This document shows positions 9,664 to 48,788 of a stretch of 64,000 nt of DNA, piece after piece. The notes below the pieces were generated by a model. It saw nothing but the letters and a program-made list of their open reading frames with translations, searched no databases and was not told the origin of the DNA. The translations under genes were made by a program, and so were the position numbers. Each line of letters opens with the position of its first letter. The first letter of the stretch is position 1. This stretch comes from an uncultured Planctomycetales bacterium (GTDB lineage: Bacteria; Omnitrophota; Gorgyraeia; Gygaellales; Profunditerraquicolaceae), in the NCBI GenBank assembly GCA_964645795.1, contig CAZYCL010000001.1, positions 287,194 to 351,193 of the forward strand. Reading direction: 5' to 3'.

Positions 9664-9665
9664 TT

Positions 9666-10472: not shown

Positions 10473-10478
10473 AATCGC

Positions 10479-13031: not shown

Positions 13032-13427
13032 TCAGAATCTATCGGAGACGGAGAACCTGCCCGCTCCCAGCAGGATAAGCGCCACGCATACCGCGGCGAT
13101 GATAAAAGCGTACTCGAAGCCGCCCTGCATCATGAAAAAACCGTTCTTAAGGTGCACCTTGTAAGCGGCAACCGCGATCAGGATCAACAGGGCTGCCGAA
13201 GAACTCCTCACGCCTAAACCGATGATCAGCAAAAACCCCCCGACAAGCTCGGTATAAGCGGCCAGATACGCCCAAAACGACGCCGGGGCAAACCCCAAGC
13301 CCGAGAGCATCTTTGAGAATCCGGGTATACCGGAACCGCCCAGAAGGCCGAACGCCTTTTGTATTCCGTGCAAGCAGAACATGATGCCCAGTGATATTCG
13401 CAATAACAGTATCGCTATATCCATCAT
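13032..13427 (-). CDS. DoxX family membrane protein
   Basis: 131 aa, four TM helices, N-terminus LLRISLGIMFCLHGIQK typical of DoxX. Confidence 0.7.
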   Translation of the reverse strand: MMDIAILLLRISLGIMFCLHGIQKAFGLLGGSGIPGFSKMLSGLGFAPASFWAYLAAYTELVGGFLLIIGLGVRSSSAALLILIAVAAYKVHLKNGFFMMQGGFEYAFIIAAVCVALILLGAGRFSVSDRF

Positions 13428-33559: not shown

Positions 33560-34678
33560 ATGAATCTCCTTTCATTCCTAATTAAGGACCTTCTGCGCCG
33601 CAAGCTGCGCATCCTGCTTACCATCGCGGGGGTGGCGGTGGGGCTGGCTGCCTGCACCATAATGCTGGGCTTAAGCCAGAGCATCCGCGATTCTTTCCGC
33701 CTGGCCCACTCCAACCGCAATATCGATATCATCGTATTTGAAAAGGACGGATACAACATCCTCTCCAGCAAAGTAGACGAAGCGATAATCCGGCAGCTAC
33801 AACGGCTGCCTGAAGTGGAATCCGCTGCCGCAGCCATCCTTGACCTGCAAAAGTTCGATAACCGGTATCTGCCGCTGTTCGGCTGGGCCCCCGGCTCACT
33901 GCTCTATGACCAGATAGTGATCAGCTCCGGGAGAAAACCGGCGCAAGCCGCCAATGAAGTGATCGTCGGCGATCTCTTTGCCCGGGCATCGGAGAAAAAG
34001 ATCGGGGACAAACTCTCCATAAAGGGGCAGCCTTTCGAGATCGTAGGCGTCTTTAAAAGCCAGGTGCCGTTTGAAAGGTCGGCACTGGTCATTTCGCTGG
34101 ATATGCTGCAGAGGATAAAGAATACGGGTGCTACGGTAGCGGCAGTGCACCTGCGTTTAAAAAGCGGATACAGAAACAAAGATACCGTTGATGCTGTATC
34201 CCGCAGGATAGAAGAGCTTTACCCTAAAATAAGCGCCCAGCCCGCAGATATCTTTATGAGCGAAAAGACCCGTCAGATAATCTTAGGCGAGAAGTTCTCC
34301 CTGCTTATCGCGATAGTCATAATCGTGGCAGTGGTGCTGGGCCTTTCCAATACCATGATCACCACGGTATTTGAGCAGAGAAAGCTCATGGGCGTGCTTA
34401 TTGCCCTTGGCTGGCAGAAAAGCGACGTCTTAAAGCTGGTATTTTCGCAGGCCCTGCTTCTGGTCTTTTTTGCCGGGGCCATCGGCGCAGGGATCGGTTT
34501 CTATGCCACCGCAGGCGTATTCAGGATGATGGAGATAAGCGTATTTGCCCCGGCGCAAGACTTCATATTTATCTTAAAGGTCGCCGGGATGATCCTTGTC
34601 TCGGGCCTGGCCGCAGCCTTGATCCCTGCCTGGATCATCATCAACTTAAACCCCGTCGAGGTGATCAAAAGTGAATAA
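33560..34678 (+). CDS. ABC transporter permease (FtsX/MacB-LolC type). Start taken at the internal ATG 33560, directly after the upstream stop.
   Basis: N-terminal TM helix, ~200-aa periplasmic domain, three C-terminal TM helices. The ORF-track N-extension overlaps the upstream gene. Confidence 0.7.
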   Translation: MNLLSFLIKDLLRRKLRILLTIAGVAVGLAACTIMLGLSQSIRDSFRLAHSNRNIDIIVFEKDGYNILSSKVDEAIIRQLQRLPEVESAAAAILDLQKFDNRYLPLFGWAPGSLLYDQIVISSGRKPAQAANEVIVGDLFARASEKKIGDKLSIKGQPFEIVGVFKSQVPFERSALVISLDMLQRIKNTGATVAAVHLRLKSGYRNKDTVDAVSRRIEELYPKISAQPADIFMSEKTRQIILGEKFSLLIAIVIIVAVVLGLSNTMITTVFEQRKLMGVLIALGWQKSDVLKLVFSQALLLVFFAGAIGAGIGFYATAGVFRMMEISVFAPAQDFIFILKVAGMILVSGLAAALIPAWIIINLNPVEVIKSE

Positions 34679-35351
34679 ACCGGGCGATGATATACTTATC
34701 CGTTGTCAGGGTTTAAGCAAAACCTATCCCAATACCCGGACCAATGCCCTGCGCCAGGTCCAGCTTGACATCCGCCGCGCTGAATTCATAAGCATTACCG
34801 GCCCCAGCGGCAGCGGCAAATCTACCTTCCTTAATATTCTCGCCGCGCTTATTGAGCCAACAGAAGGAGAAGTGTCCTTCAGGGGCCGCCCGTACTCAGA
34901 GATAAAAAATAAACCACTTTTCAGGCGCGAGAATATCGGCTATATCTTCCAGGACTTCTATCTCTACCCCGGTTTCAGCGCGCTGGAAAACATCCTTATC
35001 GCCAGTGCCTACAGCCTCCTCAGGCCGCGCTCACTTAAAGACCGGGCCTTAGAGCTCCTCTCCTATCTTAATCTGGGCTCAAAAGCATTACTTAAGGTAA
35101 ATACGCTTTCTGCCGGAGAGCGCCAGAGGGTTTGTATCGCCCGGGCCCTCATTCACCAGCCGGCGCTGATCCTGGCGGATGAGCCTACCGGCAGCCTCGA
35201 CAGCAATAACGCAAGGGCCATTATGGATATCTTAAAGGTAATCAACGCCGAGAAGGAAGCGACCATTATCATGGCTACCCATGATATGCGCATGGCCGGC
35301 TATGCCCACAGGAACATAGCAATTGAGGATGGGGTCCTTAGGAGATCTTAA
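34671..35351 (+). CDS. ABC transporter ATP-binding protein (LolD/MacB-ATPase type)
   Basis: [35 protein letters not shown]. Confidence 0.85.
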   Translation: MNKPGDDILIRCQGLSKTYPNTRTNALRQVQLDIRRAEFISITGPSGSGKSTFLNILAALIEPTEGEVSFRGRPYSEIKNKPLFRRENIGYIFQDFYLYPGFSALENILIASAYSLLRPRSLKDRALELLSYLNLGSKALLKVNTLSAGERQRVCIARALIHQPALILADEPTGSLDSNNARAIMDILKVINAEKEATIIMATHDMRMAGYAHRNIAIEDGVLRRS

Positions 35352-35640
35352 CGGAAAATTGCATTATATGAATGGTCAGAATTGCCACGCCCAGCGCAAT
35401 ACGCAGGCACCGGTATAGCTGCTGCCTGGCAGAGCTCTCCCTGTGCCTGAAGATATCTACCCAGCCTTCCAAAACCAGAAACCCTCCCATGATCAGGGCC
35501 GAGACATCCACCGTGACCGGGTCAAGATAGCTGCAGCCGCGCACCTCTTTATTGGCGCTGCTCTGAATAAGGAAAGCGCCGACAAAGGCTAAAAGGCTCA
35601 AGAGCCAGGCCTGGATCTCTGTCTTGTTTATGTTATTCAT
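35338..35640 (-). CDS. Small hypothetical membrane protein
   Basis: 100 aa, 3 predicted TM helices, last gene of the iron-locus transcription unit. Confidence 0.35.
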   Translation of the reverse strand: MNNINKTEIQAWLLSLLAFVGAFLIQSSANKEVRGCSYLDPVTVDVSALIMGGFLVLEGWVDIFRHRESSARQQLYRCLRIALGVAILTIHIMQFSVKIS

Positions 35641-35651
35641 GAAGATTTCTG

Positions 35652-36527
35652 TTAAACCTCGATCCCGAACACATTCCTTATCGCCAGCCCGATGAGAAAG
35701 TTAATCGCTGCGACGCTAAGGCTTATCCCGGCCATCTCCAGGAACCTTTTCCTGAAATCAAGCCCTTTAGCCACCGAAATGTAGTAGGTAAAGCAGAATA
35801 TCAAAATAAGCGAAAAGGCGACTACCAGGCCCAGGCAAAGAAACATATTATCAAACAATAAGTAGGGAAAGACCAAAAGCGCTACGGTCCCGATATAGGC
35901 GCTTCCCGTATAGATACTGGCCTTAACGGGGTCCTTGTCCGTCTCTTCGTGCTTGGTAGAAAGGTACTCGGAGGCAGCCATAGACATGGCAGCGGCAATG
36001 CCGGTGATCAGCCCCACGACGGCAATAAGCTTTGTCTTCTGCAGTGCAAGCGTAAACCCGACCAGGGCGCCGCTTAACTCTACCAGGGCGTCGTTAAGGC
36101 CCAGCACCATGGAGCTGACGTACTTTAGTCGCTCCTCGTCTATCAGGCTGATCAGTTCGTTCTCATGGCTCTTTTCGTCCTTGATCACCTCTTCTATTTT
36201 AGGCGAAACTTCTTTAATCTTTTCATAGGCATCCTGGGCCAGGTCCTCGCCGTTTTCCATGAGCTTTAAGCCGAAGTTCAGGCCCAAGATCTTAGAGATA
36301 GCCACAAAGATAAGGATCTTGCGCTTATCAGGGGAAACCTCCTGACCGGTAAGGGTTTTGAAATAATCGTAATGCGCCAGCTCTTCGCCGGCTATCCTCT
36401 CCAGGATTTCGGCGTGCTTTGAGGCCTTTACAAATCCGGCCAGCTTCTTATAAACCACATGCTCGGTGATCTCATTCCTCTGCGCCCGCAGGGCCTCTCT
36501 TCTCAAGCCAGGGCTTAATGGATCCAT
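35652..36527 (-). CDS. MbfA-like membrane-bound erythrin-VIT1 iron exporter (ferritin-like N-terminal domain plus VIT1/CCC1 domain)
   Basis: N-terminal E...ExxH ferritin-like helices (EELAHYDYF, DEKSHENEL) followed by VIT1-type TM helices. Confidence 0.7.
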   Translation of the reverse strand: MDPLSPGLRREALRAQRNEITEHVVYKKLAGFVKASKHAEILERIAGEELAHYDYFKTLTGQEVSPDKRKILIFVAISKILGLNFGLKLMENGEDLAQDAYEKIKEVSPKIEEVIKDEKSHENELISLIDEERLKYVSSMVLGLNDALVELSGALVGFTLALQKTKLIAVVGLITGIAAAMSMAASEYLSTKHEETDKDPVKASIYTGSAYIGTVALLVFPYLLFDNMFLCLGLVVAFSLILIFCFTYYISVAKGLDFRKRFLEMAGISLSVAAINFLIGLAIRNVFGIEV

Positions 36528-36552
36528 CTTTAGCGCCTCTCTATTCCTCGGC

Positions 36553-36852
36553 CTACCTTTTTCTTATTTCTTCCTCTACCTCTTCTGCGCCCTCATCGTA
36601 GAACTTCTGCTCATCAGGGGCCAGCTCCTTTAAGAGCCTCAGGAACTCTCCTGCATGCACTTTTTCTTCATCCGCGATATCCCTTAAGACTTCCTGCGAC
36701 AGTTTATGGTCGGTTGACTCCGCAAGCTGCATATAAAGCTGTATCGCCTCGTACTCCGCGGCGATCATGAAGCGGATAGCGCGGATAAGCTCCTCTTTGG
36801 CGATCTTCTTATCCCTGGATAGCCCTGAAAACGGCGTGCAAAATTCCGGCAT
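36553..36852 (-). CDS. Two-helix erythrin/half-ferritin-like protein (single E...ExxH diiron half-site)
   Basis: AAEYEAIQLY on helix 1 and ADEEKVHAGEF on helix 2. 99 aa. SD AGGAGG. Confidence 0.5.
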   Translation of the reverse strand: MPEFCTPFSGLSRDKKIAKEELIRAIRFMIAAEYEAIQLYMQLAESTDHKLSQEVLRDIADEEKVHAGEFLRLLKELAPDEQKFYDEGAEEVEEEIRKR

Positions 36853-36871
36853 GACAAACCTCCTTTATTGT

Positions 36872-37000
36872 TTAACCTTTGATCTTTACCATCGGCTGCT
36901 GGCAGCAGACCAGCTCCCCGCCGCCTGCCTTCTTAACCTCCACGACATTGCCGCAGACTTCGCACTTATATACTTCTCCCTCTTTTTCTACTCTTGCCAT
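36872..37000 (-). CDS. Desulforedoxin-like small protein (42 aa). Not in the ORF track.
   Basis: Minus strand: [42 protein letters not shown], with CxxC...CC spacing like desulforedoxin. AGGAGGGGG SD lies 6 nt upstream. Confidence 0.6.
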
Positions 37001-37021
37001 ACCCCCTCCTGTCCAAAGATT

Positions 37022-37765
37022 TTATTTTACTTCCACCGTAGCGTTAGAGTCAAAAGGATTGGTCCTGGCTGCCAGCGAAAAAAGATACGGGTAATCGTGT
37101 TTTAGGTACTTCATATGATCCAGCCACTGCAGGATAAGCCCGTGGTAGGCCCTCTTTATGTCTCCAGCCAGATGCTGATAATCCGTATCCGGCAGCTTCT
37201 TTAAGTCTGCGCGGTGCGCCAGCTCATCGGTCAGGTGGAATACCGCCCAAAGCAGATTGGTAAATGACTCGTGCTCCAGCATATTGGGGTTCTCCAGCAG
37301 CCCGAGCATGAACTGCCTTTTGGAAACCAGGAAATCCTTTACTTCTGCCAAGCCCCCCTTTTTGCTGTCAACCCCTATATCGAAGCCCTCTATCTTCTTG
37401 CGCGCAGAGATAAACTCCTTATCCGACCAGTCTTTGGTCACTACCAACTGCGCAGCCAGCCTTGAAAGCTCCGGGGCAAACTGCGAGCACCTCTTCAAGA
37501 GCTCAGTGCCCACTTCGCTGAAAAAAGTCCCGATGACCATGTTCAGCTTCTTCATGATCGTCTGTTTCTCCCGGTATTCAAGCAAGCGGTGCAGGACCAG
37601 CATCACGATCAGCACATCCAAAAAAAGAAAAGCAATGTCGCCTACAAGATAAAGGAATATATGGTGGGCGTCCCTGAATATAAAATAGTGGATAAAATAG
37701 AAAAGCGCCGAGAGAAAAACCAGGATGAGCGCCAGTATGAGCTGCCAGCTGCGAATAAGCTTCAT
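37022..37765 (-). CDS. Hypothetical membrane protein (3 TM helices plus a cytoplasmic domain)
   Basis: 247 aa, no recognisable motif. It is the first gene before the desulforedoxin gene. Confidence 0.4.
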   Translation of the reverse strand: MKLIRSWQLILALILVFLSALFYFIHYFIFRDAHHIFLYLVGDIAFLFLDVLIVMLVLHRLLEYREKQTIMKKLNMVIGTFFSEVGTELLKRCSQFAPELSRLAAQLVVTKDWSDKEFISARKKIEGFDIGVDSKKGGLAEVKDFLVSKRQFMLGLLENPNMLEHESFTNLLWAVFHLTDELAHRADLKKLPDTDYQHLAGDIKRAYHGLILQWLDHMKYLKHDYPYLFSLAARTNPFDSNATVEVK

Positions 37766-37779
37766 TTACCTACCTCTTT

Positions 37780-38592
37780 CTAGCCGAATGCCACATCCAG
37801 TATCATCATCGCCAAAAACCCTAAAATCGTACCTGCCGTAGCCAGGTCAGTATGGCCGTTGCGTTGTGATTCGGGTATGACCTCTTCGACTACGACGAAT
37901 ATCATCGCCCCTGCGGCAAAACCCAGGGCATAAGGAAGCAATGGCCTGGCCCATAAAACCGCTGCCGCGCCTAATACTGCGGCAATGGGTTCAACAATCG
38001 CGGAAAGCTGGCCGAACCAAAAACTCCTGAACTTGGACATTTTTTCGCGGCGAAGCGTTATCGATACGGCGAAGCCTTCAGGTATATTCTGGATGCCTAT
38101 ACCAAACGAAAGCACTATTGCCGCAGCCATTGTGGCTTCCGGTAAACCTAAAGCCGCCGCCCCGATTGCCACTCCCACAGCCAGGCCTTCCGGAATATTA
38201 TGCAACGTTATTGCCAGTATCAAGAGCACGCTTCGGCGCCAGGAAGTTTTTAGTCCTTCGGCCTCGGAAACGGAAAACCCCAGATGCAGATGGGGTAATA
38301 CCTTATCGATAGACCTTAAAAACAGGGTCCCTAAAAGGAGGCCGGCAGCGGCAGGCATCCAGGGGATCGTCCCGGCGTGATACGACATCTCGATCGCCGG
38401 AGAAAGCAGCGACCAGAAGCTTGCCGCCAGCATCACCCCGGCGGCAAATCCGAGCATGGAATCAAAGACCTTCTGGCTAAAATCTTTTGTGATAAATATG
38501 AAGGCAGCGCCCAAAGCAGTAAGCAGCCAGGTAAAACCGCCCGCTGCCAGCGCCTGCAATACGGGATGATAATTCTCGATATTAACGCTCAT
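37780..38592 (-). CDS. ZIP family metal (Zn/Fe) permease (ZupT-like)
   Basis: HNIPEGLAVG and QNIPEGFAV motifs. 8 TM helices. Confidence 0.8.
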   Translation of the reverse strand: MSVNIENYHPVLQALAAGGFTWLLTALGAAFIFITKDFSQKVFDSMLGFAAGVMLAASFWSLLSPAIEMSYHAGTIPWMPAAAGLLLGTLFLRSIDKVLPHLHLGFSVSEAEGLKTSWRRSVLLILAITLHNIPEGLAVGVAIGAAALGLPEATMAAAIVLSFGIGIQNIPEGFAVSITLRREKMSKFRSFWFGQLSAIVEPIAAVLGAAAVLWARPLLPYALGFAAGAMIFVVVEEVIPESQRNGHTDLATAGTILGFLAMMILDVAFG

Positions 38593-38658
38593 ATGTTCGT
38601 ATTATACCAAGTCCGGGGGGCGCCTGCAACAGAAACAGGCGCCCCCTTGACAGCCGTT

Positions 38659-39210
38659 TTACTTCAGGAACTTAGAGACAAAAGGCGACGTCTCGCCGCG
38701 GCGCATAAAATGCCCGGAAGGGCCTTCGCCGAGGAATTCGGCAAACCAGGACTCGTGCTCGATCTCTTCGTTAAGTATGGCCAGGACCAGATCGTAGGTG
38801 CGGTGGTCTTTGCCAGCGGTCATATTGCATATCTCGGTGTAACCCTTGACCGCGCATCTTTCCGCGTTAGCCAGGACCTTCAATATCCCCTCGACATCTT
38901 CGGGCGACTTCGGAAGATTCGCCGGCGGACATGCAGAAAGGTCATGGAACTTCTTCATGCAGTCCGGAAGCTTGCCTCCCAGCTCATAGATACGCGGGAC
39001 CAGCGCCTCAAAGTGGTTGCGGTCTTCGATCCTGGCGGTCTCGGCTATTTCCTTGACCCCCTCGCCCTTTAAACCAATTAGGTTGGCACGCAAGATCGTA
39101 TAATAGTAATAGGTGGTGATCTCTGCCGACGCGTTCTTTATCAACAGGTCCAACAACTTATCCAAATCCACTCCCGACTGTTTAACCATCTCGATCGCTA
39201 CTTTTGCCAT
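38659..39210 (-). CDS. Ferritin-like diiron protein (bacterioferritin/DPS-like family)
   Basis: Four-helix-bundle ligand pattern: SAEITTYYYY, IEDRNHFE, ANAERCAV, LNEEIEHESW. Confidence 0.6.
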   Translation of the reverse strand: MAKVAIEMVKQSGVDLDKLLDLLIKNASAEITTYYYYTILRANLIGLKGEGVKEIAETARIEDRNHFEALVPRIYELGGKLPDCMKKFHDLSACPPANLPKSPEDVEGILKVLANAERCAVKGYTEICNMTAGKDHRTYDLVLAILNEEIEHESWFAEFLGEGPSGHFMRRGETSPFVSKFLK

Positions 39211-39290
39211 TTTTCTCCTCCTGTTTTAGTATAGCAGCTTAAGTTTCAACTCTTTCTTTTGCAAAGCCTGCATTCCCTCCTTTCATACTT

Positions 39291-39306
39291 ATTACTAATT
39301 AGTAAT
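39291..39306. promoter_or_regulatory. Perfect 16-bp palindrome ATTACTAATTAGTAAT (candidate Fur/PerR-type operator) upstream of the ferritin-like gene
   Basis: Read directly. It lies between the fur 3' end and the ferritin-like gene start, followed by a third half-site TATTACTAA. Confidence 0.4.
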
Positions 39307-39335
39307 TATTACTAACGTTAAACCAAAAAAAAATT

Positions 39336-39779
39336 TTACTTCTTCTTAGCGCACTGCCCGCAGATGCCCTCTAAAACCACTTTCTTGTTTAAAATATTGA
39401 ACCTCGACTTTATCTCTTCGGGTATTTTGATATTATCGTAGTATTCGTTATAAAAATCCACTATCTTATGGCACCTGGCGCACCTGAAGTGGTGATGGGT
39501 TCTTGTGTTGGGGTCAAAACGCTTGGACCCTCCGTAGCCCTCCACTATATTGATCAGCCCTATATCGGAAAGCGAGATGACCGTCCTGTATACGGTATCG
39601 AATGATATATTGGGAAAGGCCGCTTTTATCCTTTTCAGTATCGCCTCAATAGAAGGATGGTCTTCTGCCTTCACCAGCTCCTTGTATATTTCGGTGCGCT
39701 GCGGCGTAAGCTTAAGCCCGCGGCTGCGGCAGGCCTGCCTGAAGCGTTCCATGGCCTCCTGAACATCTGTTTTATGCAT
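39336..39779 (-). CDS. Fur family transcriptional regulator (Fur/PerR/Zur)
   Basis: Winged-helix N-terminus, HHHFRCARC and CGQC metal sites. Confidence 0.85.
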   Translation of the reverse strand: MHKTDVQEAMERFRQACRSRGLKLTPQRTEIYKELVKAEDHPSIEAILKRIKAAFPNISFDTVYRTVISLSDIGLINIVEGYGGSKRFDPNTRTHHHFRCARCHKIVDFYNEYYDNIKIPEEIKSRFNILNKKVVLEGICGQCAKKK

Positions 39780-39782
39780 GTT

Positions 39783-39814
39783 ATTATTATGTAATAATTA
39801 TTCTTATCTGTCAA
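39783..39814 (-). promoter_or_regulatory. Promoter TTGACA-17-CATAAT, 6 nt before the fur ATG (leaderless), overlapped by the inverted repeat ATTATTA-TG-TAATAAT
   Basis: The minus strand reads TTGACAGATAAGAATAATTATTACATAATAATAACATG. The inverted repeat is at 39783-39798. Confidence 0.4.
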
Positions 39815-41092: not shown

Positions 41093-42307
41093 CTATTTAT
41101 TATCGCGCATATATTTTTGCTTTGCTTCCAGGATGTTCAAAGTCTTTTCATCCATATATCCTGCGCAGTAAAGGGTATTGAATGTATGGTAGATGCGGTT
41201 ACTGCGCAGCATATGAGCCAACCCGTTAAATCCGTATTTGAGGAGGATATTTTCCAGATCGTTAAATGCAAATTTATCGGCCCTTGCCGCCAAATAGTCC
41301 TTCTCAAAGTACCGGCCGGGCCCCCAAGAGGTTACCTGAGGCTTGAACCTGTCCTTGCTCTGTTGAAAGGTATAGACTGAAGAAAATTTCGGAGGATAAA
41401 ATGACTCTGTTTTCTTCGCTGCATCATAGACTTCGCTTAAAAATCTGGTGTAAGCGTTCTGCTCGATGCCATCCAGCCTGGATCCTTCTTTTTCAAGGAT
41501 GTCCAGGCACATTAACCCGTATTCAAACTGGTTAAAGACCATCGAGATAAAAGCAAGCTTGGCAAGCATCTCAGGGCGCTTCTGGTTGCTGCCTATGCCC
41601 CTGTTTTTCCTGCCCTTTTTTATTTTCTTCAGAAAAAGGGCATCCGCGCTGCACTGAAAGCCTTCCGCGCGCAGCCCTATGGGCTTACGACAGGGAGAGT
41701 AGTCGTCGTGCATTGAAGTAAATTTGACAAAATAAAAATCTTTTGCCTGCATCAGCTTCATTATATCGCTGAATAGCTTCTGGTTCTTCCGCAGGGGAGA
41801 GAATGCCACTTCGGCGATGACGCCAAGTATACAGTCATCCAGAAGACGGGATGCGCCCTTTAATATCGGATATTCGTAGCCCTCCACGTCGAGGGACAAG
41901 AAATCCGGCGCGGGGACGCCGGTCTTGCCTTCTCGATAAAGCTGGTCAAGGGTGACCAGCTTTACGGGTATGGTCTCCATCGGCTTCATGATATCGGACA
42001 TTAAGCATTCGTAGCTTACGTAAAAGAGGGAAAAATCGGCAAACTCCTCGTTTAGAGGCAAAAGCGAGCTGTTGTAGGTGTCGTAGGTGATAAAAAACTT
42101 GGATGTAGAGGATTTTTCGCCGATGCAGTATGGTAAAACATGGGTGGTGGACTGAGGCTGCGAACTGTATGCCTGTTTTATCTGCTCGATACAGGCAGCA
42201 TCGGCATCGTAAATGACGTTGATAAGATCCGCCTCAAAGGCAGAAAGGCACGGAAACCCCTTTGAGCCGCCTCTGCCGCCGATGTGGTGCAAAGATAATT
42301 TTGACAT
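41093..42307 (-). CDS. FkbM family methyltransferase domain protein
   Basis: LSLDVEGYEYPILKGA matches the FkbM signature. 404 aa. Confidence 0.5.
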   Translation of the reverse strand: MSKLSLHHIGGRGGSKGFPCLSAFEADLINVIYDADAACIEQIKQAYSSQPQSTTHVLPYCIGEKSSTSKFFITYDTYNSSLLPLNEEFADFSLFYVSYECLMSDIMKPMETIPVKLVTLDQLYREGKTGVPAPDFLSLDVEGYEYPILKGASRLLDDCILGVIAEVAFSPLRKNQKLFSDIMKLMQAKDFYFVKFTSMHDDYSPCRKPIGLRAEGFQCSADALFLKKIKKGRKNRGIGSNQKRPEMLAKLAFISMVFNQFEYGLMCLDILEKEGSRLDGIEQNAYTRFLSEVYDAAKKTESFYPPKFSSVYTFQQSKDRFKPQVTSWGPGRYFEKDYLAARADKFAFNDLENILLKYGFNGLAHMLRSNRIYHTFNTLYCAGYMDEKTLNILEAKQKYMRDNK

Positions 42308-42382
42308 AAAATAATGATAACAAGAAATTAAACCCTAGGCAATGCTTATCTGGAGCTCATGGTTGTAAAAATTGCGCAATCC

Positions 42383-43219
42383 CTATTCAACCATGTAAAT
42401 ATTCTTTCCGCATCTGCATGCCTGGCATACTGCTTCCTTGAAAACCCCTTTTCGCAGGTCATTCCTCAGCTTCCTGTAATAAGGCTTGTTCCAGATATCT
42501 AGCAATCTTTCATTCTTTATATTGCCCAATTTAACGGTATTCAGATAATCCTCGCAGCAGAATATCACATCCCCATTACAATTGATGTAAATAAGGCTTA
42601 GGGGGAACATGCAGTTTTTGGGACGCCCCGCTTCGCCGTCCAACTTTATTAACCCGCCCCTGCTGCCGATATATTCCAGGCTGTTGTAAATTAACTGGAC
42701 GCCTTCATTGCCGTGCTCTTGCCGGTATTTTTTCAGCTCGGCGATTGTCGCCAATTCTTCCTTTTGATGCAGGGAAACGGCAAATGACCTAACCCCTGCC
42801 CTTACCAGCTTGTCATACCTTTCGATTGTCAGAAAATCACCGTTGGTAGCGATACTGATAACGCAGCCGGGCAGCTTTGCCCTGGCATATTCGATAAACC
42901 CCTCCAGGCGTTGGTCCAATAAAGGTTCGTTATAAAAATCAGGGTGGATCTGCCCTACCCACTTAAGCCCGGATAATTCGTCTATGACCTTGCGAAACAA
43001 ATCCGGCTCCATTTTATCTTTGCCGGTAACAAGCCTCCTGTCATATTTTGAGTTAGGGCAATACGGGCATTTTCTATTACAGGCAGAAGAGGTTTCGATG
43101 CCGATACTGGAAAATATGTTGAAAATGTCGTGCCTCAGGAAGGATAATTTAAATTTGATTGCCAGCGGCAAGCGTTGCTTGAGAAAATTGAATAAAGGGA
43201 AAACAAGATTATTCTTCAA
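42383..43219 (-). CDS. Radical SAM protein with a C-terminal Cys-rich (SPASM-like) region
   Basis: CNRKCPYC (CxxxCxxC) and C-terminal CNGDVIFCC...CQACRC. Confidence 0.65.
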   Translation of the reverse strand: MKNNLVFPLFNFLKQRLPLAIKFKLSFLRHDIFNIFSSIGIETSSACNRKCPYCPNSKYDRRLVTGKDKMEPDLFRKVIDELSGLKWVGQIHPDFYNEPLLDQRLEGFIEYARAKLPGCVISIATNGDFLTIERYDKLVRAGVRSFAVSLHQKEELATIAELKKYRQEHGNEGVQLIYNSLEYIGSRGGLIKLDGEAGRPKNCMFPLSLIYINCNGDVIFCCEDYLNTVKLGNIKNERLLDIWNKPYYRKLRNDLRKGVFKEAVCQACRCGKNIYMVE

Positions 43220-43371
43220 ATGTCGGCTCGTCAGGATTATGCGGCATCTGCAGCGCGTAATGATGGGGCTTTATGGCCCTATTATAGCAAAGACAATGGA
43301 AAGCGGCAACATCAGGATTGCCTGCCTTTCTACTCCCGCTCCTGCCTCCCTTTACCTGGCCTGCTTTTATC

Positions 43372-43399
43372 TTGACTGGTATGCCAATTAGTGTAAAAT
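43372..43399 (+). promoter_or_regulatory. Candidate promoter TTGACT-16-TAAAAT for the tRNA-Asn gene
   Basis: TTGACT at 43372-43377 and TGTAAAAT at 43392-43399, about 34 nt before tRNA position 1. Confidence 0.4.
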
Positions 43400-43432
43400 A
43401 TCTACACATATTGTTCTTTTAAATACCGGAAT

Positions 43433-43749
43433 TCCCCCTTAGCTCAGTCGGTAGAGCGAGTGGCTGTCAAATCCCGCCAGTGGCGGGATTTGTGCCTAAC
43501 GCAGAGGCGTTCGGCACAAGAGGCAGCTTCCTTGGGAAACCAGGGTTGAAACAGCGGGCTAATTCAGGGAAGTCCCGAGAGATCGGGATAATCCTGAGCT
43601 AAGTCTCCAGTTTAAGGAGTAAATGCGCAGAGACTATACACCCGCCTCCTAAAGCGAAAGCTACGGAGAAGAGATAGTCCACTTCCGGAAGTAATTCCGG
43701 GTCAAGTGTAACCACCAGGTCCGAGGTTCGAGTCCTCGAGGGGGAGCCA
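43433..43749 (+). tRNA. tRNA-Asn (anticodon GUU) interrupted by a group I intron. Exons are 43433-43467 and 43709-43749, including the encoded CCA.
   Basis: Joined exons give TCCCCCT-TA-GCTC-AGTCGGTA-GAGC-G-AGTGG-CTGTTAA-CCACC-AGGTC-CGAGG-TTCGAGT-CCTCG-AGGGGGA-G-CCA. The acceptor stem is 7 bp, U1-A72, G73, the canonical Asn anticodon loop CUGUUAA, a T-loop TTCGAGT, and an Asn-like D-loop. Confidence 0.7.
43468..43708 (+). other. Group I self-splicing intron (~241 nt) between anticodon positions 35 and 36 of tRNA-Asn
   Basis: R-like CAGAGACTATACA (43629-43641) and S-like AAGAGATAGTCC (43669-43680) form P7 (GACTAT/ATAGTC). There are three GNRA-capped hairpins (GAAA, GAAA, GTAA), a terminal omega-G (43708), and the 5' exon ends in U. 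It is too short to encode a homing endonuclease. Confidence 0.65.
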
Positions 43750-43757
43750 TCTTTAAC

Positions 43758-43788
43758 AAATGCCTTACTCATATGAGTAAGGCATTTT
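43758..43788. terminator. Perfect 30-bp palindrome AAATGCCTTACTCATATGAGTAAGGCATTT with flanking T/A runs, directly after the tRNA
   Basis: Read directly. It could act as a bidirectional terminator. Confidence 0.5.
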
Positions 43789-43944
43789 GCTTGCAGATGG
43801 TTTTTTTACGAATTTACGGCATGTTCATAAAACCGAACTTTTTGAAATAAGTTTTCGATAAATTTATTAACATCCTTTTTTTGTTCTTTAATAGTATAAT
43901 GAGCTTCGGGTCTTGATTTAATTTCGGAGGAGATAAAAATAGGC

Positions 43945-44415
43945 ATGAAGGAAGAAGGCCTTGGTAAAGCTCTTTTGAGCGTCTTGGTCGTGTCGGTTGT
44001 GGTGGTTGGTGTTATTGCTTTTATTTTCTATCGGGTGAGGCTGATTGGGCCTGTAATTGTTGTTTTGGGTTTTGTTCCGTTGATTCCTTTGAAGCTGTCT
44101 GGCAGGTCGGTTAAGTCAGCTGGTGCAGACATTATTTTTGGGGCTATCGATACAGGTCTCTTGGGAGTTGCTGCCCTTATTGGGGCGAGTTTTGCTGGAG
44201 TGCTCGGAGCTATTGTCGGTGGTGCTGTCGGGGATTCGATTACTGATGGGTTGGCTGGCTTGTTTGAGGGAAAGATTGCTGAGCGTTTGAGAAAGCTCGG
44301 GATTGATGAAGCACGGACTCCTCTCAGTTCTTCAATGGGGAAGATGAGCGGTTGTCTATTTGGGGTTGGAGTTGTTTTAACAATTGCTTGGAGTATAATC
44401 GGAATAAGTATGTAA
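43945..44415 (+). CDS. Gly/Ala-rich hypothetical membrane protein (AT-rich island)
   Basis: 156 aa, three or four hydrophobic helices, lower GC than the flanks. Confidence 0.4.
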   Translation: MKEEGLGKALLSVLVVSVVVVGVIAFIFYRVRLIGPVIVVLGFVPLIPLKLSGRSVKSAGADIIFGAIDTGLLGVAALIGASFAGVLGAIVGGAVGDSITDGLAGLFEGKIAERLRKLGIDEARTPLSSSMGKMSGCLFGVGVVLTIAWSIIGISM

Positions 44416-44520
44416 AAAAACGGTTATGAAAATATCGTTTGCCACCTACAGCCTTTTCTTACACTGCTTAGTCCTACAAATATCGTAATAGAAAAGTTCG
44501 GATTTTTGGGGGGACGTGGG

Positions 44521-44571
44521 GAGTTTGACTTCCTAACCCTCTGCGATATAATATATTGCAGAGGGTTTTTG
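44521..44571 (+). terminator. 51-nt repeat module ending in a terminator hairpin CCCTCTG-N-CAGAGGG plus TTTTTG (copy 1)
   Basis: A near-identical second copy lies at 46108-46158. Confidence 0.5.
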
Positions 44572-44609
44572 CTTTACAGTTATTCGTTAGGGACAAGTAT
44601 TAAATTAAT

Positions 44610-45617
44610 ATGGCTAAGATAAATAAGCTACTTAGAACGTTACCAGTGCTAATATATTGGATTTTTGCATTATTGGTACTTTTTGAAATAGGAGTTCGGT
44701 TTTGGGGTTATTCCCAACATTATATTTACGACCCAATCTATAAAGAATTTGACAAGAGTAAAGATTTGCCTTATATCCATAAGCCAAATCTTAAAAATGC
44801 TCGAGGGCGCGGATTGACTAATGTCAATACGGATGTTCTGGGTCTGCGTTCAAAAATGCCAGGTATTAAATATGGACCGAAGAAAGAGAATGATTATAGG
44901 ATCGTAATATTAGGCGATTCAGTGGCCTTCGGAGAAGGCGTAAAGATGGAGGAAGACACTTTTGCTCAGGTGCTTGAAGATATTCTTAACACAAAACAAC
45001 ATTCCTTTGTCGTTAAGGTATTCAACTATGGAGTTTCGGCGTACAGCATTAAGAATATGGTGGCAACCTTACAATATAGAGCGCTGGATGTAGAGCCGGA
45101 TTTGGTCCTTATGACGGTCATTCCTGACGACTTTCGGATTGACAGAACGGTTGTTGTAGACAAGTTCGGGTACACCTTTAATAAACGTTTATCCGGTTTC
45201 ATGAATAAGGATTCCGCTATAAAGCGTTTATTACGGGAAGTGCATTTAGTATATCTTCTTAGGGATATAAAGCATTTTTACATTGATCGGATCCGAAATA
45301 CAAAAGACATGGGCCCATCAGATTCCTTGGATGATTATGCTTATATTGTAAAATTTAAAGAGATCTCAACGCAGCATGGCTTGCTTTACGCGGTAGTGCT
45401 TTTACCAGATCTCGCTGAAGATTTTAAAAGTTTGTTAGCAAAATTAAATCAAGATGAAATAGTCTCTATCGACCTCTCGTTTCTTAAGAATGAATTTACT
45501 CCTCGTGAATTTATGGCGAGTAAGTTTGATAGACATCCTTCGGCAATTGTTCATAGAAGAATAGCCAGAATGCTTTCGGAATACATTATAAGCAATCAAT
45601 TGATACCCAAGAAATAG
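44610..45617 (+). CDS. Membrane-anchored SGNH/GDSL hydrolase-family protein (paralogue 2, AT-rich)
   Basis: LGDSVAFGEG (block I) and DRHPS (DxxH). N-terminal TM. Confidence 0.6.
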   Translation: MAKINKLLRTLPVLIYWIFALLVLFEIGVRFWGYSQHYIYDPIYKEFDKSKDLPYIHKPNLKNARGRGLTNVNTDVLGLRSKMPGIKYGPKKENDYRIVILGDSVAFGEGVKMEEDTFAQVLEDILNTKQHSFVVKVFNYGVSAYSIKNMVATLQYRALDVEPDLVLMTVIPDDFRIDRTVVVDKFGYTFNKRLSGFMNKDSAIKRLLREVHLVYLLRDIKHFYIDRIRNTKDMGPSDSLDDYAYIVKFKEISTQHGLLYAVVLLPDLAEDFKSLLAKLNQDEIVSIDLSFLKNEFTPREFMASKFDRHPSAIVHRRIARMLSEYIISNQLIPKK

Positions 45618-45766
45618 CCTCGGAATCTATCTTTAAAAAGGGATCGAAAGGGTTTCTGCATCGAGAAAAATTCGCGGGCATAGATTTGACCATTAGAAAA
45701 ATAAATTCTTAATGACTTAATTTTTTTATAAAACAAAGCCCAACACGACAAGTTTTAATTCCTACT

Positions 45767-45850
45767 CCCCCGTCATACACCAGTTGCAAAACTCGTCCAA
45801 GAGGCGGAGCCAAAATTAGCCCGGCACGAAAGTGCTGGGCTTTTTTATTT
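45767..45850 (+). repeat. Conserved ~60-nt 3' module (CTCCCCCGT..GTTGCAAAACTC..AGGC..AGCCA) followed by a hairpin terminator 45818-45850 (copy A)
   Basis: It aligns with 47240-47300. The terminator is AGCCCGGCAC-GAAA-GTGCTGGGCT plus T6. Confidence 0.45.
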
Positions 45851-46017
45851 TCGCGCCCTCTCGAGAAAAGGGGGATTTTAAGGGGAAAAGACCGTTTTCC
45901 CCTTAAGGTTGAAGTCTTTTGATTGCTAAGGAAGGGATGACACCCGCCACGCTTTTTGGCGGGGCCATAGGGGAAACCATTGGGTTTCCCCTATGGGGAG
46001 CGAGCGCAAGCGAACGA

Positions 46018-46038
46018 CAGGTCCGCAGGTTCGAGTCC
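46018..46038 (+). other. 21-nt near-copy of the tRNA-Asn variable-loop/T-arm segment (CAGGTCCGCAGGTTCGAGTCC), set in a hairpin-dense non-coding stretch
   Basis: It matches tRNA positions 43716-43735 with one inserted C. There is no acceptor-stem match. Confidence 0.4.
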
Positions 46039-46107
46039 CTAAGCGGCCAAGGCGCGAAGCTCCGAGGGAGCGCCGGAAATGCTCTGCATTTCCGGCGCCC
46101 CGAGGCG

Positions 46108-46158
46108 GAGTTTGATTTCCTAACCCTCTGTGATAGAATATATTGCAGAGGGTTTTTG
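46108..46158 (+). terminator. 51-nt repeat module with terminator hairpin (copy 2)
   Basis: GAGTTTGATTTCCTAACCCTCTGTGATAGAATATATTGCAGAGGGTTTTTG, about 92% identical to 44521-44571. Confidence 0.5.
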
Positions 46159-46200
46159 ATTGGATAAAGCGGTTATCCCGTTGGATGATTATTTAATCTA

Positions 46201-47160
46201 ATGATGTTACAAAATAAAAATAGGGCAGATAATTTAAGAAAGAAAATACTTTTGGTGCTGTTAGGGGTTGTTGCGGCGTTGATTCTTGTTGAATTGTTAT
46301 TGCGGATATGCGGTTTTGTCTACAAAAGCATCTATAGTCCGAAGCAAAAAAATTTAGGTAATTATACAATATTTTGCCTGGGCGAATCTACTACATGGGG
46401 AGTTGGAGCAAGGAATCCATCATTGCAGAGTTATCCGAGGCAGTTGGAAGGAAAATTAGCTGTCATGTATAAGAGTTTGGGTATAAAAGTCATTTATGAT
46501 CAAACAATAGGCCAGAATACTTCCGAAATTTCAAATAAACTGCCGTTTTATATTGAAAAATACCGCCCGCAAATAGTAATAATCATGTGCGGCGCTAATA
46601 ATTTCTGGAACTTAGATAAAAGTAACATATTGTTATTTAATAAGAATAAATATATTGCCGATACCGCATTGAATATTTTAATGTTTTTGGATAAATTCAG
46701 GATTTGGAAATTATATAAATGGCTGAGTTTGAATTCTGGTTTTTATAAACATAGATGGAATTATTATTATCCGTATAGTTACCCCTGGTATGTTTTGTTG
46801 AGAGAAATGGAGCGGGAATATAACGGGATGGGTATTTTTTATAAAATTGCGGACTACGATATAAGAGAAATGGTAAAAACCTGCAAACGAAACGGGATTA
46901 AGCTGATTATCTGTAATTATCCGGGCGGGGTAGGCGCGCCCCTTGATTCTTTACAAAAGAAGATTGCTACGGATTTTCAAGTTGTTTTCGTAGACAATAA
47001 GAAAATTTTTGGTGAACTTCCTAATGCCAAAGATTATTTTTCCACAGACAAGTGGCATCCTAATGAAGAGGGATATGGGATTTTGGCTGAAAATGTATAT
47101 GATGCTATAGTCAAAAACAAGCTGTTGCAAAAAAGCAACAATGGCAATACCCTCCCGTAG
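46201..47160 (+). CDS. SGNH hydrolase-like protein (paralogue 3; block I reads GES not GDS)
   Basis: FCLGESTTWGVG and DKWHPNEEG (DxxH). N-terminal TM. AT-rich. Confidence 0.5.
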   Translation: MMLQNKNRADNLRKKILLVLLGVVAALILVELLLRICGFVYKSIYSPKQKNLGNYTIFCLGESTTWGVGARNPSLQSYPRQLEGKLAVMYKSLGIKVIYDQTIGQNTSEISNKLPFYIEKYRPQIVIIMCGANNFWNLDKSNILLFNKNKYIADTALNILMFLDKFRIWKLYKWLSLNSGFYKHRWNYYYPYSYPWYVLLREMEREYNGMGIFYKIADYDIREMVKTCKRNGIKLIICNYPGGVGAPLDSLQKKIATDFQVVFVDNKKIFGELPNAKDYFSTDKWHPNEEGYGILAENVYDAIVKNKLLQKSNNGNTLP

Positions 47161-47239
47161 TTGATACCGAATACTTAGCTTTAATTTACTGAGCCGCTTA
47201 ATTTAATAAAGCCGGCTCTGGGTATGGTTTTTTCGCCTC

Positions 47240-47327
47240 CCCCCGTAATTAACCGGTTGCGAAACTCCTCCGATAAAGGCAGCCATACTTAGAATAGCCC
47301 TACTCATATGAGCAGGGCTATTTTTTT
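47240..47327 (+). repeat. Conserved 3' module (copy B) followed by the hairpin terminator AGCCCTACTCATATGAGCAGGGCT plus T7 (47294-47327)
   Basis: It aligns with 45767-45826. The hairpin centre CTCATATGAG is the same as in the palindrome at 43758. Confidence 0.45.
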
Positions 47328-47606
47328 GACAAATTACCTGAACTGTCGGGTTTGCCGCTGCCCCCATCCCCCGAAAAGCCGGATCTTATTTAATTGTATC
47401 TATTCCGGGGTATTTGTGCTAGACTGTAAATAGTCAACTATCCTTGCACCTCGGTAAAACGAGACAGTCCGTACCCGGCACGCCCTGAAGATCCTTCGCG
47501 TATTCCACCCCAATCAGGCTGTTTTATTTTTCCCTCACGGTTGACCGTTTAGTTCCAAAAATCACTTACTGCGCATCCCCGGCATTTTTCAGGAAGATAA
47601 CGTCAA

Positions 47607-48788
47607 ATGGTAAAAATGAGTAAAAAGATCAATGTGCTCCATGTAGCGACCCTGAACCGGCCGATCAGGCAGGACCTGGGTTACGGCCCTATCGAAACGG
47701 TTATTTATAACATCGATAAGGGCATCCACGCATTGGGCTACCGTTCGATCGTCGCCTGTTCCGGCGATTCCCGCGTTGCCGGAGAACAGTATACCACTAT
47801 TGAAAAAAGCTTCAGTGAATACTGGAGCGAAAATACGCGCGCGCAGCAACGAAATATGCGCAGGCATCTTGCCATGTCGCTTGGAAGGGCAAAAAAAGGC
47901 GACATCGATATCATCCACATGCATGATGCCATTATGGCAGAATATATTTTTAAGGGGGTCTTTAAAAGCCCGGTCCCTATCGTAATGACGCTCCATGTGC
48001 CTGCTGAGGAAAAAGGATCGTTCAAGCGCTGGAATGAATCGCTCGCTTCTTCTTCCGCCGCGTATTTTGTCCCGATCAGCGAATACCAGAGAAGGCAGCA
48101 TCACGGGCTGGTCAACGCGCAGAAGGTCATCCATCACGGCATCGATGTAGAGGGCTACCCGTTCAAAAGCGGCCCCGCAAAACACGACTATCTGTTCTCG
48201 ATCGGCAGGATCACTCAGGATAAAGGCCAGGATAAAGCCATCGAGATAGCGAAGAAAACCGGCTCCCGGCTCATACTTGCCGGCAATGTCCAGAACAAAG
48301 CAAAAGACCGGGCATTTTTCAAAAGATTAAATAAGTCCATCGACCTTGTGACTGACGCCGGAAAGCCTTTTACCGGCAGCGATTATTATGAGAAGGTAAT
48401 GAAACCCATCCTGGATTCGGGCAAGCAGATCATCTATATCGGCGAAGTTGACAGGGACCAGAAAAAACTGTGGTACCTGCACGCGCGCATGACCCTCTTC
48501 CCTATTCAGTGGGGCGAACCGTTCGGGCTCGTGCTGATCGAATCCATGGCCTGCGGCACTCCGGTGGCCGCCTTTCGCAAGGGCTCGGTGTCCGAAATCG
48601 TCATTCACAAAAAAACAGGTTTTGTCGTGGATTCGATAGATGAGATGGCTGAGGCCGCGAGGGCAAGCCGCCTTATCGATCCCAACGACTGCCGCAGGCA
48701 CGTTGAAGATAATTTCTCGATTGCCGTTATGGCCGGGAAATATTCACAACTATACCGGTGGATCTTGACGAAAGGACTCCATGCCTAA
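47607..48788 (+). CDS. Glycosyltransferase family 4 (GT-B, RfaB-like)
   Basis: Conserved EPFGLVLIESMACGTPV (EX7E region) and the GT4 C-terminal domain. Confidence 0.75.
   Translation: MVKMSKKINVLHVATLNRPIRQDLGYGPIETVIYNIDKGIHALGYRSIVACSGDSRVAGEQYTTIEKSFSEYWSENTRAQQRNMRRHLAMSLGRAKKGDIDIIHMHDAIMAEYIFKGVFKSPVPIVMTLHVPAEEKGSFKRWNESLASSSAAYFVPISEYQRRQHHGLVNAQKVIHHGIDVEGYPFKSGPAKHDYLFSIGRITQDKGQDKAIEIAKKTGSRLILAGNVQNKAKDRAFFKRLNKSIDLVTDAGKPFTGSDYYEKVMKPILDSGKQIIYIGEVDRDQKKLWYLHARMTLFPIQWGEPFGLVLIESMACGTPVAAFRKGSVSEIVIHKKTGFVVDSIDEMAEAARASRLIDPNDCRRHVEDNFSIAVMAGKYSQLYRWILTKGLHA

Follow-up and report, generated by a model that had tools for sequence, protein, structure and literature searches.

Encapsulated ferritins (EncFtn), as described from P. 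furiosus (PFC_05175, 5N5E), M. xanthus (EncC and EncB) and R. rubrum (Rru_A0973), have two long helices followed by a short C-terminal helix, and their conserved E, Y and ExxH ferroxidase ligands are given symmetrically by two subunits; the subunits assemble into an annular decamer whose diiron sites lie at dimer interfaces. EncFtn is described as oxidising iron but requiring encapsulin in order to make up a competent store of iron (PMC5012862; bioRxiv 10.1101/785121). Relatives that lack a shell are already on record, under the name "Non-EncFtn" (He et al. 2016, PMC5012862) and under that of short ferritin-like proteins (short FLPs; PMC11202242), and were left uncharacterised. Here, a gene for such a relative, encoding a protein of 99 amino acids (aa), is described within an eight-gene minus-strand locus of a 64,000-nucleotide (nt) stretch of DNA, hereafter the window, from an uncultured Planctomycetales bacterium placed by GTDB in the Omnitrophota (contig CAZYCL010000001.1, positions 287,194 to 351,193). 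The closest homologues, too, point to Omnitrophota as its probable source. The locus is a real, coherent and largely ordinary gene cluster for peroxide and iron stress in an anaerobic bacterium, with parts drawn from known families. Its unusual features are the shell-less EncFtn-type mini-ferritin, a tiny desulforedoxin (Dx) and an MJ1433-like membrane protein, which recur as neighbours in other genomes. What may be new is the recurrent association of the shell-less EncFtn clade and Dx with the MJ1433-like protein beside metal transporters. The locus is probably a peroxide and iron stress island, in which a PerR-type regulator and the ferritin DpsL are followed by a ZIP-MJ1433-Dx-EncFtn-Er-VIT1 operon, with a catalytic shell-less EncFtn protein and Dx as its electron carrier.

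Several described systems bear on this reading. Rubrerythrin and desulforubrerythrin, which act in the peroxide defence of anaerobes, join a diiron four-helix site and an Fe(Cys)4 centre. Desulforedoxin is a homodimer with one Fe(Cys)4 centre in each subunit; to our knowledge, its physiological partner has never been established. In D. desulfuricans, bacterioferritin (Bfr) occurs with rubredoxin-2. Bfr with the ferredoxin Bfd is the precedent for carrier-driven iron release (PMC7762939). The alpha-proteobacterial iron exporter MbfA carries two ExxH motifs in a diiron four-helix domain at its N-terminus, which is fused to a VIT1 membrane domain. In Firmicutes, PerR-type repressors act through AT-rich 7-1-7 operators at their own gene and at a Dps-type gene, and iron efflux belongs to the same stress response. 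The B. subtilis PerR regulon, for example, includes perR, mrgA and pfeT. For the present locus, what was observed or computed here comprises the identities of the genes, their folds and conserved ligands, purifying selection, the operator with its conservation, and the neighbourhood statistics.

An EncFtn-type protein and a desulforedoxin in one gene array

Eight co-directional open reading frames (ORFs) are present on the minus strand, as a preliminary description of this DNA had proposed; the gene identities given there were borne out by ORF coordinates and family scans, and the peroxide and iron theme that it suggested fits the gene content. Pfam and NCBIfam scans identified a family for seven of the eight, the exception being the small hydrophobic protein at 35338–35640. 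Several independent metagenome contigs carry the identical locus. Its features, in the direction of transcription, are as follows.

39786–39814, minus strand: TTGACA-17-CATAAT, a strong promoter-like site upstream of the regulator gene that agrees with the consensus at 11 of 12 positions
39792–39806, unstranded: operator-like 7-1-7 inverted repeat TAAGAATAATTATTA, between the two hexamers of the regulator promoter
39336–39779, minus strand: Fur-family regulator of PerR type, 147 aa (PF01475, 91 bits)
39300–39314, unstranded: perfect 7-1-7 palindrome TAGTAATAATTACTA, predicted operator upstream of dpsL, from a motif scan
38659–39210, minus strand: DpsL-type dodecameric ferritin, Dps-like with a bacterioferritin-like diiron site (NF009990, 319 bits, cutoff 158)
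38616–38646, minus strand: GC-rich hairpin after dpsL, read from the sequence (11-bp stem, 9-nt loop, no T tract)
37780–38592, minus strand: ZIP-family divalent metal transporter, 270 aa (PF02535, 90 bits)
37022–37765, minus strand: MJ1433-like membrane protein, 247 aa, with two N-terminal transmembrane helices and an all-helical domain (Pfam PF27246/PF27232)
36872–37000, minus strand: desulforedoxin, 42 aa, Fe(Cys)4 motif C13-x2-C16 ... C32-C33 (PF06397, 64 bits, cutoff 23)
36553–36852, minus strand: EncFtn-type two-helix ferritin-like protein, 99 aa, without targeting peptide (Non-EncFtn / short FLP class)
35652–36527, minus strand: erythrin-VIT1 (Er-VIT1) protein of MbfA architecture, putative Fe2+ exporter (VIT1 PF01988, 55 bits; Rubrerythrin PF02915, 26.5 bits)
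35338–35640, minus strand: small hydrophobic protein, last operon gene, 100 aa (87 aa by other callers), about three hydrophobic segments

From the ZIP gene to the last gene, the intergenic gaps measure 11–25 nt, and purine-rich, Shine-Dalgarno-like stretches precede the MJ1433-like gene (AGAGGTAGG), the Dx gene (GGAGGGGG) and the 99-aa gene (AAGGAGG). Because the gaps are short and these sequences are present, the genes from ZIP to the small membrane protein appear to form a single operon; co-transcription is likewise suggested by the gene layout. The array is closed by a convergent gene for an ATPase of the ATP-binding cassette (ABC) type (34671–35351), which overlaps the 3' end of the small membrane protein gene.

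The 99-aa protein passes the thresholds of two family models, Pfam Rubrerythrin (PF02915, 34 bits, threshold 22.8) and NCBIfam EncB_fam, an encapsulin ferritin-like cargo family (NF058679, 92.8 against a cutoff of 90). Its best PDB sequence matches are the encapsulated-ferritin domain of P. furiosus (5N5E, E=4.6e-15) and M. xanthus EncC (7S8T, E=7.7e-10). In the AlphaFold2 (AF2) model (predicted local distance difference test, pLDDT, 83), three helices (residues 19–46, 50–77 and 79–98) form the two-helix fold with an extra C-terminal helix, and the top 50 Foldseek matches are EncFtn-type structures save one (2FZF, rank 19), the best being 5N5E (TM-score 0.73, root-mean-square deviation 1.9 Å, 44% identity). 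The two-helix half-ferritin with one E...ExxH half-site that had been proposed earlier was thus recovered, with E33 and E63xxH66 as the half-site. Residues E33, E35, Y40, E63 and H66 are invariant in 35 homologues; E33, Y40, E63 and H66 align with the ferroxidase ligands of the P. furiosus protein and EncC, and E35 corresponds to an entry-site residue. There is one ExxH motif (residue 63), not the two E...ExxH motifs of a rubrerythrin in a single-chain four-helix bundle. By sequence and model, the protein is placed as a half-ferritin (two-helix) diiron protein of the EncFtn family, not as a rubrerythrin or erythrin; the earlier assignment to a piece of rubrerythrin gives way to EncFtn, given 5N5E as best match in sequence and fold. 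A recent paralogue of the adjacent erythrin domain was also considered for this protein, and was rejected on a BLASTP comparison with the Er-VIT1 protein (E=3).

The C-terminus of the 99-aa protein, EEVEEEIRKR (residue 99 being the last), resembles none of the targeting peptides in Table 2 of PMC11202242. No encapsulin Pfam domain was found in 20 candidate ORFs of the window, and no recurrent neighbour of encapsulin size was found in 80 loci of relatives of the protein. Because EncFtn needs encapsulin to store iron and no shell gene was found nearby, the shell-less protein, by analogy, most likely acts catalytically rather than storing iron. Its family is very widespread, having more than 503 species representatives, and identity stays at 74–88% between many bacterial phyla and archaea (Methanoculleus, Methanogenium, Bathyarchaeota). 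Since this identity spans distant phyla and is extreme for so small a protein, it implies either very strong constraint or frequent horizontal transfer.

Unusually long members of the family were also fetched (43 proteins): their N-terminal extensions look like mis-called starts, and the long C-terminal ones are partly phage-like and unrelated. In nine proteins (P0330, P0335, P0356, P0368, P0374, P0392, P0400, P0411 and P0428), the EncFtn-like domain is attached to long extensions that have no relation to one another and in some cases look phage-like, and the domain also occurs on eight IMG/VR viral contigs (L179–L186), one of 469 kb. These occurrences hint that virus-borne versions of the EncFtn-like ferritin domain exist.

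Over its whole length, the 42-aa protein encoded just upstream can be aligned with D. gigas Dx (1CFW, E=1.3e-10), and it matches the N-terminal domain of desulfoferrodoxin and desulforubrerythrin. In 27 stand-alone homologues of 40–45 aa from Omnitrophota, Atribacterota, Elusimicrobiota, Bacillota and methanogens, its four Cys do not vary. The ratio of nonsynonymous to synonymous substitution rates (dN/dS) against relatives is 0.04–0.09, with synonymous sites near saturation, and for this reason the ORF can be taken, from its sequence evolution, as a real gene under strong purifying selection; the earlier view of it as a conserved desulforedoxin holds. Dx is encoded by a separate gene with its own ribosome-binding site, and is not the covalent Rubredoxin-like or Dx domain of a rubrerythrin. 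Other stand-alone Dx genes lie in operons of anaerobes for detoxification of reactive oxygen species, together with rubrerythrin (Rbr), AhpC, flavodiiron protein (FDP) and superoxide reductase (SOR). A literature search on Dx with encapsulin or ferritin partners returned nothing relevant. About 22 kb from the locus, at 13424–14560 on the minus strand, the window encodes a flavoprotein of 378 aa (Pyr_redox_2) that agrees in size and family with NADH:rubredoxin oxidoreductases and is a candidate reductase for Dx.

The MJ1433-like protein and its gene neighbourhoods

Both MJ1433 domains, N and C, are matched by the 247-aa membrane protein (PF27246/PF27232, precomputed hits for the identical protein), which has about 7,900 homologues, all unnamed. 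Its AF2 model (pLDDT 85) is all-helical: a membrane hairpin of two helices leads into a helical domain. The invariant residues are H26, D32, H35 and D43 around a short loop and E84, H165, H177, E181, H198 and D202 in the soluble domain, a His/Asp/Glu pattern that suggests metal binding. Foldseek found no fold match in the PDB (best E=0.24), a profile search against PDB sequences gave chance hits only, an NCBIfam scan of 41 members gave noise only, and no literature mentioning MJ1433 was found.

The neighbourhoods of the family and of the 99-aa protein were compared in two sets, comprising 80 GTDB loci of 99-aa relatives (L007–L086) and 80 metagenome loci of MJ1433-like relatives. The most frequent neighbour of the EncFtn-like gene is the MJ1433-like gene, and the two adjoin each other, in both gene orders, in 8 of the 80 GTDB loci and 9 of the 80 metagenome loci. 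Sporadic neighbours of the EncFtn-like gene are desulfoferrodoxin (Dfx), rubredoxin with rubrerythrin, superoxide dismutase, peroxiredoxins, FeoAB, Er-VIT1 and Fur/PerR, and 15 of the 80 genes have no operonic neighbour. Near the MJ1433-like gene, the 80 metagenome loci contain ZIP (11 loci), EncFtn-like (9), Fur/PerR (7), Dx (6) and DpsL (5) genes, and individual look-ups gave the orders MJ1433 then EncFtn-like, Fur-DpsL-ZIP-MJ1433, VIT1 then MJ1433, ZnuABC then MJ1433, and MJ1433 then Dx. These neighbourhoods tie the MJ1433-like protein to metal homeostasis.

Dx is encoded at most two genes downstream of the MJ1433-like gene in 5 of the 63 loci with enough flank (~8%), and additionally in L092. 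The gene that follows the MJ1433-Dx pair encodes an EncFtn-like protein in the window and in L102, a 147-aa ferritin-like protein in L097 and, in L117, a classical ferritin; L098 shows the order MJ1433, EncFtn-like, Dx, rubrerythrin. With the window included, Dx abuts a ferritin-superfamily gene, of four classes, in five of the seven loci that have both MJ1433-like and Dx genes. Because the ferritin-superfamily class after MJ1433-Dx varies and adjacency of Dx and EncFtn-like genes is rare, the conserved signal is not the Dx-EncFtn pair; it is a looser triad, often encoded next to metal transporters, in which an MJ1433-like protein and Dx are accompanied by one or another ferritin-like diiron protein. 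As a separate observation, a Dehalococcoidia locus (L059, 2341–2529) encodes a His-rich 62-aa protein with two CxxC pairs and no Pfam family between the EncFtn-like and MJ1433-like genes, in the slot held by Dx in the window.

Regulator, operators and other genes of the window

The regulator, for which other gene callers choose M10 as start (138 aa), has PerR (NF052545) as its best NCBIfam model, at 104 bits and under the equivalog cutoff of 180, and its closest PDB match is B. subtilis PerR (2FE3, E=1e-20). The alignment with 2FE3 shows conservation of the equivalents of the regulatory PerR metal site (H37, D85, H91, H93 and D104) and of both CxxC pairs, the structural Cys4 site; C. jejuni Fur has Glu at the D104 position. 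On these residues the regulator looks like PerR rather than Fur. The operator-like site within its promoter suggests that it autoregulates through 39792–39806. Five matches to the operator motif, at three mismatches or fewer, occur in the window, all of them in the two intergenic regions of the locus that belong to the regulator and dpsL. The motif stands at the same two positions, upstream of the fur/perR-like gene and in the fur-dpsL spacer, in L088, L097, L104 and L109, whose regulators are only 47–61% identical.

Control of the array by its Fur-family protein, as first proposed, is therefore only partly upheld. The family membership stands, in a PerR-like form, and the predicted operators support control of perR and dpsL; none lies upstream of the ZIP-to-VIT1 operon, so that its common regulation with perR and dpsL is only a possibility. 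In L088, L104 and L109, a conserved stretch, AAAATGTAACC(C/T)GTTGT(A/G)(T/C)CA(G/A)ATAA(A/G)C, is found between the dpsL terminator and ZIP; it does not occur in the window. A different metal regulator that controls the ZIP-MJ1433 operon may have its operator here.

DpsL belongs to its named class by PDB matches as well (7STW, E=2.6e-71; 2CLB, E=3.9e-61). At the hairpin that follows its gene, a terminator scan made no call in the window; in L088, L097, L104 and L109, a hairpin with a T-run, a true terminator, occupies the same position after dpsL. Downstream of the hairpin, a TATAAT-like hexamer (38601–38606) ends 8 nt before the ATG start codon of ZIP. The ZIP gene has no Shine-Dalgarno sequence (38593–38615). 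Since that sequence is absent and TATAAT stands 8 nt before the ATG, the ZIP transcript would seem to be leaderless or near-leaderless if this promoter is used. The ZIP protein scores 125 bits with the ZupT model, under the cutoff of 252, and its N-terminal 45 residues are conserved among homologues, which supports the long start.

The Er-VIT1 protein consists of an N-terminal erythrin domain with two ExxH motifs (residues 49 and 118) fused to a VIT1 membrane domain with five hydrophobic segments within residues 138–291. With the MbfA equivalog model (NF045676) it scores 20 bits against a cutoff of 450, so that its architecture, and not orthology, is shared with MbfA; a PDB sequence search with it gave spurious hits only. 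The last gene encodes the small hydrophobic protein, which has no Pfam or NCBIfam match and no homologue in the 160 related loci, and which appears by sequence to be lineage-specific.

Elsewhere in the window, a further metal transporter, positionally unrelated to the locus, is encoded at 8920–11516 on the minus strand by CbiM(PDGLE)-CbiQ-CbiO, an energy-coupling factor (ECF)-type cobalt/nickel uptake system. On the plus strand, a group I intron (43488–43701; RF00028 in Rfam, 83.9 bits) interrupts the anticodon loop of a tRNA gene (43433–43749), which ARAGORN missed until the intron was removed in silico. By the U...G rule, the splice sites give tRNA-Thr(UGU) (43465|43707) or tRNA-Asn(GUU) (43467|43709), and G73 and the U1-A72 pair resemble tRNA-Asn. 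Neither Thr nor Asn is among the bacterial tRNAs in which introns are classically found (Leu, fMet, Arg and Ile). Beside this tRNA begins a stretch (42000–48000) with a GC content of 0.41–0.45 against ~0.52 elsewhere, which contains genes of the GDSL-type lipase-like and glycosyltransferase kinds and one ORF without family match (44610–45617); possibly, an island has integrated here at the tRNA.

Proposed function and comparison with known systems

In the stress island favoured here, the PerR-type repressor would bind the 7-1-7 operators, and peroxide or iron stress would release perR and dpsL. DpsL would remove Fe(II) and H2O2 by iron mineralisation. From the logic of known peroxide regulons, ZIP would import a divalent metal, possibly Mn or Zn, that spares iron enzymes, and Er-VIT1 would export Fe(II), by analogy with MbfA (PMC7762939). 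Shell-less EncFtn subunits would pair, and the diiron ferroxidase centre at their interface would oxidise Fe(II) or reduce O2 or H2O2. Dx, a small Fe(Cys)4 carrier, would swap electrons with EncFtn-like and other ferritin-like diiron centres. It might re-reduce the diiron centre for continued O2 or H2O2 consumption, a rubrerythrin-like chemistry in trans, or it might mobilise Fe(III) in the manner of Bfd, and the Dx step is equally compatible with both. The MJ1433-like protein could serve as a membrane hub that localises or regulates this Dx/ferritin-like redox chemistry and links it to the metal transporters. We infer as possible the electron transfer from Dx to the diiron centre, the direction of metal transport and the physical contact with the MJ1433-like protein.

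Several findings weigh against this proposal. A stand-alone Dx gene adjoins the EncFtn-like gene in only 1 of the 80 EncFtn-like loci (L053), and the four closest Dx homologues that were checked have no EncFtn-like neighbour. No Dx-EncFtn fusion occurs among the 43 unusually long proteins from the 150 best of 1,468 family representatives. No PerR-type operator, at three mismatches or fewer, precedes ZIP or other window genes. An importer and an exporter in one operon are unusual, and their substrates are only predicted. The encapsulin search covered 20 candidate ORFs of the window and 80 neighbourhoods, so a shell gene may lie elsewhere in the genome. The related loci are best matches to the query, so neighbour frequencies are biased.

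A more ambitious reading, judged unlikely, is that the MJ1433-like protein, Dx and a ferritin-superfamily protein constitute a previously undescribed membrane-anchored iron-redox module of anaerobes, coupling the oxidation state of iron to import and export. The MJ1433-like protein, its His/Asp-rich loop being extracytoplasmic and its His/Glu-rich helical domain cytoplasmic, would recruit Dx and would itself bind metal or pass electrons. Dx would act on diiron partners that are interchangeable (shell-less EncFtn, ferritin, rubrerythrin), reducing or oxidising them next to the ZIP, VIT1 or Znu transporters.

It is unlikely that Dx and the 99-aa protein are a rubrerythrin or desulforubrerythrin split into two genes, as the preliminary description had proposed, and form a dedicated two-component NAD(P)H peroxidase, with Dx standing in for the rubredoxin or Dx domain and the EncFtn-like dimer for the four-helix diiron domain. 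Such a split would agree with the score of the 99-aa protein above the Pfam Rubrerythrin threshold, with its supplying half of a symmetric diiron site, with the repeated adjacency of Dx to ferritin-superfamily diiron proteins, true rubrerythrin among them, and with the potential reductase in the window, the Pyr_redox_2 protein. However, the nearest relatives in sequence and fold are EncFtn ferroxidases, not rubrerythrins, and the adjacent erythrin domain shows no similarity. The pairing with Dx is found in ~1% of EncFtn-like loci, the EncFtn-like family being mostly encoded without a nearby FeCys4 partner, and the long proteins from the 150 best representatives include no two-domain fusion. 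The split rubrerythrin is supported neither by homology nor, with adjacency in one locus of 80 and no fusions found, as a two-gene module that is conserved; it holds only as a functional analogy, in which Dx is possibly the in-trans redox partner of a diiron protein.

That the juxtaposition has no specific meaning, the genes sharing only a stress-regulated operon, is judged decidedly unlikely. Dx would then serve the MJ1433-like protein or unlinked SOR, Rbr or FDP, and the EncFtn-like protein would act alone as a ferroxidase, passing Fe(III) to DpsL or helping Er-VIT1. This agrees with L092 and L113, in which MJ1433-Dx has no ferritin-like neighbour, with at least 15 loci that have EncFtn-like and MJ1433-like genes without Dx, and with the fact that most EncFtn-like genes stand alone or with variable neighbours (15 of the 80 without operonic partner). 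Set against it, the abutment of Dx and a ferritin-superfamily gene in five of seven loci, across four classes, is improbable by chance for a 42-aa gene. That the 99-aa protein is ordinary encapsulin cargo with a shell gene elsewhere in the genome is highly improbable: the EncB_fam threshold is passed, the best structural relative, the EncFtn domain of P. furiosus, is fused to encapsulin, and encapsulation of short FLPs is left possible (PMC11202242), but the C-terminus is unlike known targeting peptides, no recurrent shell-sized neighbour occurs in 80 loci from many phyla and none in the window, and cargo genes normally adjoin their shell gene.

The locus and its relatives give the shell-less EncFtn proteins a concrete context, with PerR-type control nearby, Dx as a candidate electron partner and the MJ1433-like protein as a candidate membrane partner. 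The locus also suggests a partner for desulforedoxin, and the MJ1433-like family, of some 8,000 homologues, becomes attached to metal homeostasis. If the associations are merely regulatory, it is another stress operon of an anaerobe.

Compared with Firmicutes PerR regulons, the locus has in common a PerR-type repressor, a 7-1-7 operator at its own gene and at a Dps-type gene, and a theme of iron efflux within the stress response. In contrast to them, its operator is found at perR and dpsL only, its Dps is of the DpsL type and its efflux protein is VIT1, not a P-type ATPase. The Er-VIT1 protein has the domain plan of alpha-proteobacterial MbfA; unlike MbfA, it fails the equivalog model, its host is not an alpha-proteobacterium and the locus encodes no Irr-type regulator. 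The locus resembles Bfr/Bfd, which exchange electrons, in that the gene for a small iron-sulfur electron carrier lies next to one for a member of the ferritin family; there, however, a [2Fe-2S] ferredoxin or a rubredoxin serves as carrier, a 24-mer storage cage is its partner and no membrane protein takes part. Rubrerythrin and desulforubrerythrin hold the same two kinds of iron site; the present locus encodes two separate polypeptides, its diiron site would need a homodimer, its diiron protein is of the EncFtn lineage and the pairing with Dx is not conserved. The Non-EncFtn or short FLP class, represented by NE0167 (PDB 3K6C), agrees with the 99-aa protein in length (~95–100 aa), EncFtn fold and lack of a targeting peptide, but NE0167 is distant in sequence (E=0.049, 22% identity) and the window protein falls in a separate clade, conserved at 74–88% among anaerobes of both bacteria and archaea. 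The closest likeness is to EncFtn itself, in the helices and in the conserved E, Y and ExxH ligands; unlike EncFtn, the 99-aa protein has no targeting peptide, no shell fusion and no adjacent shell gene, and its gene shares an operon with those for Dx, a membrane protein and metal transporters.

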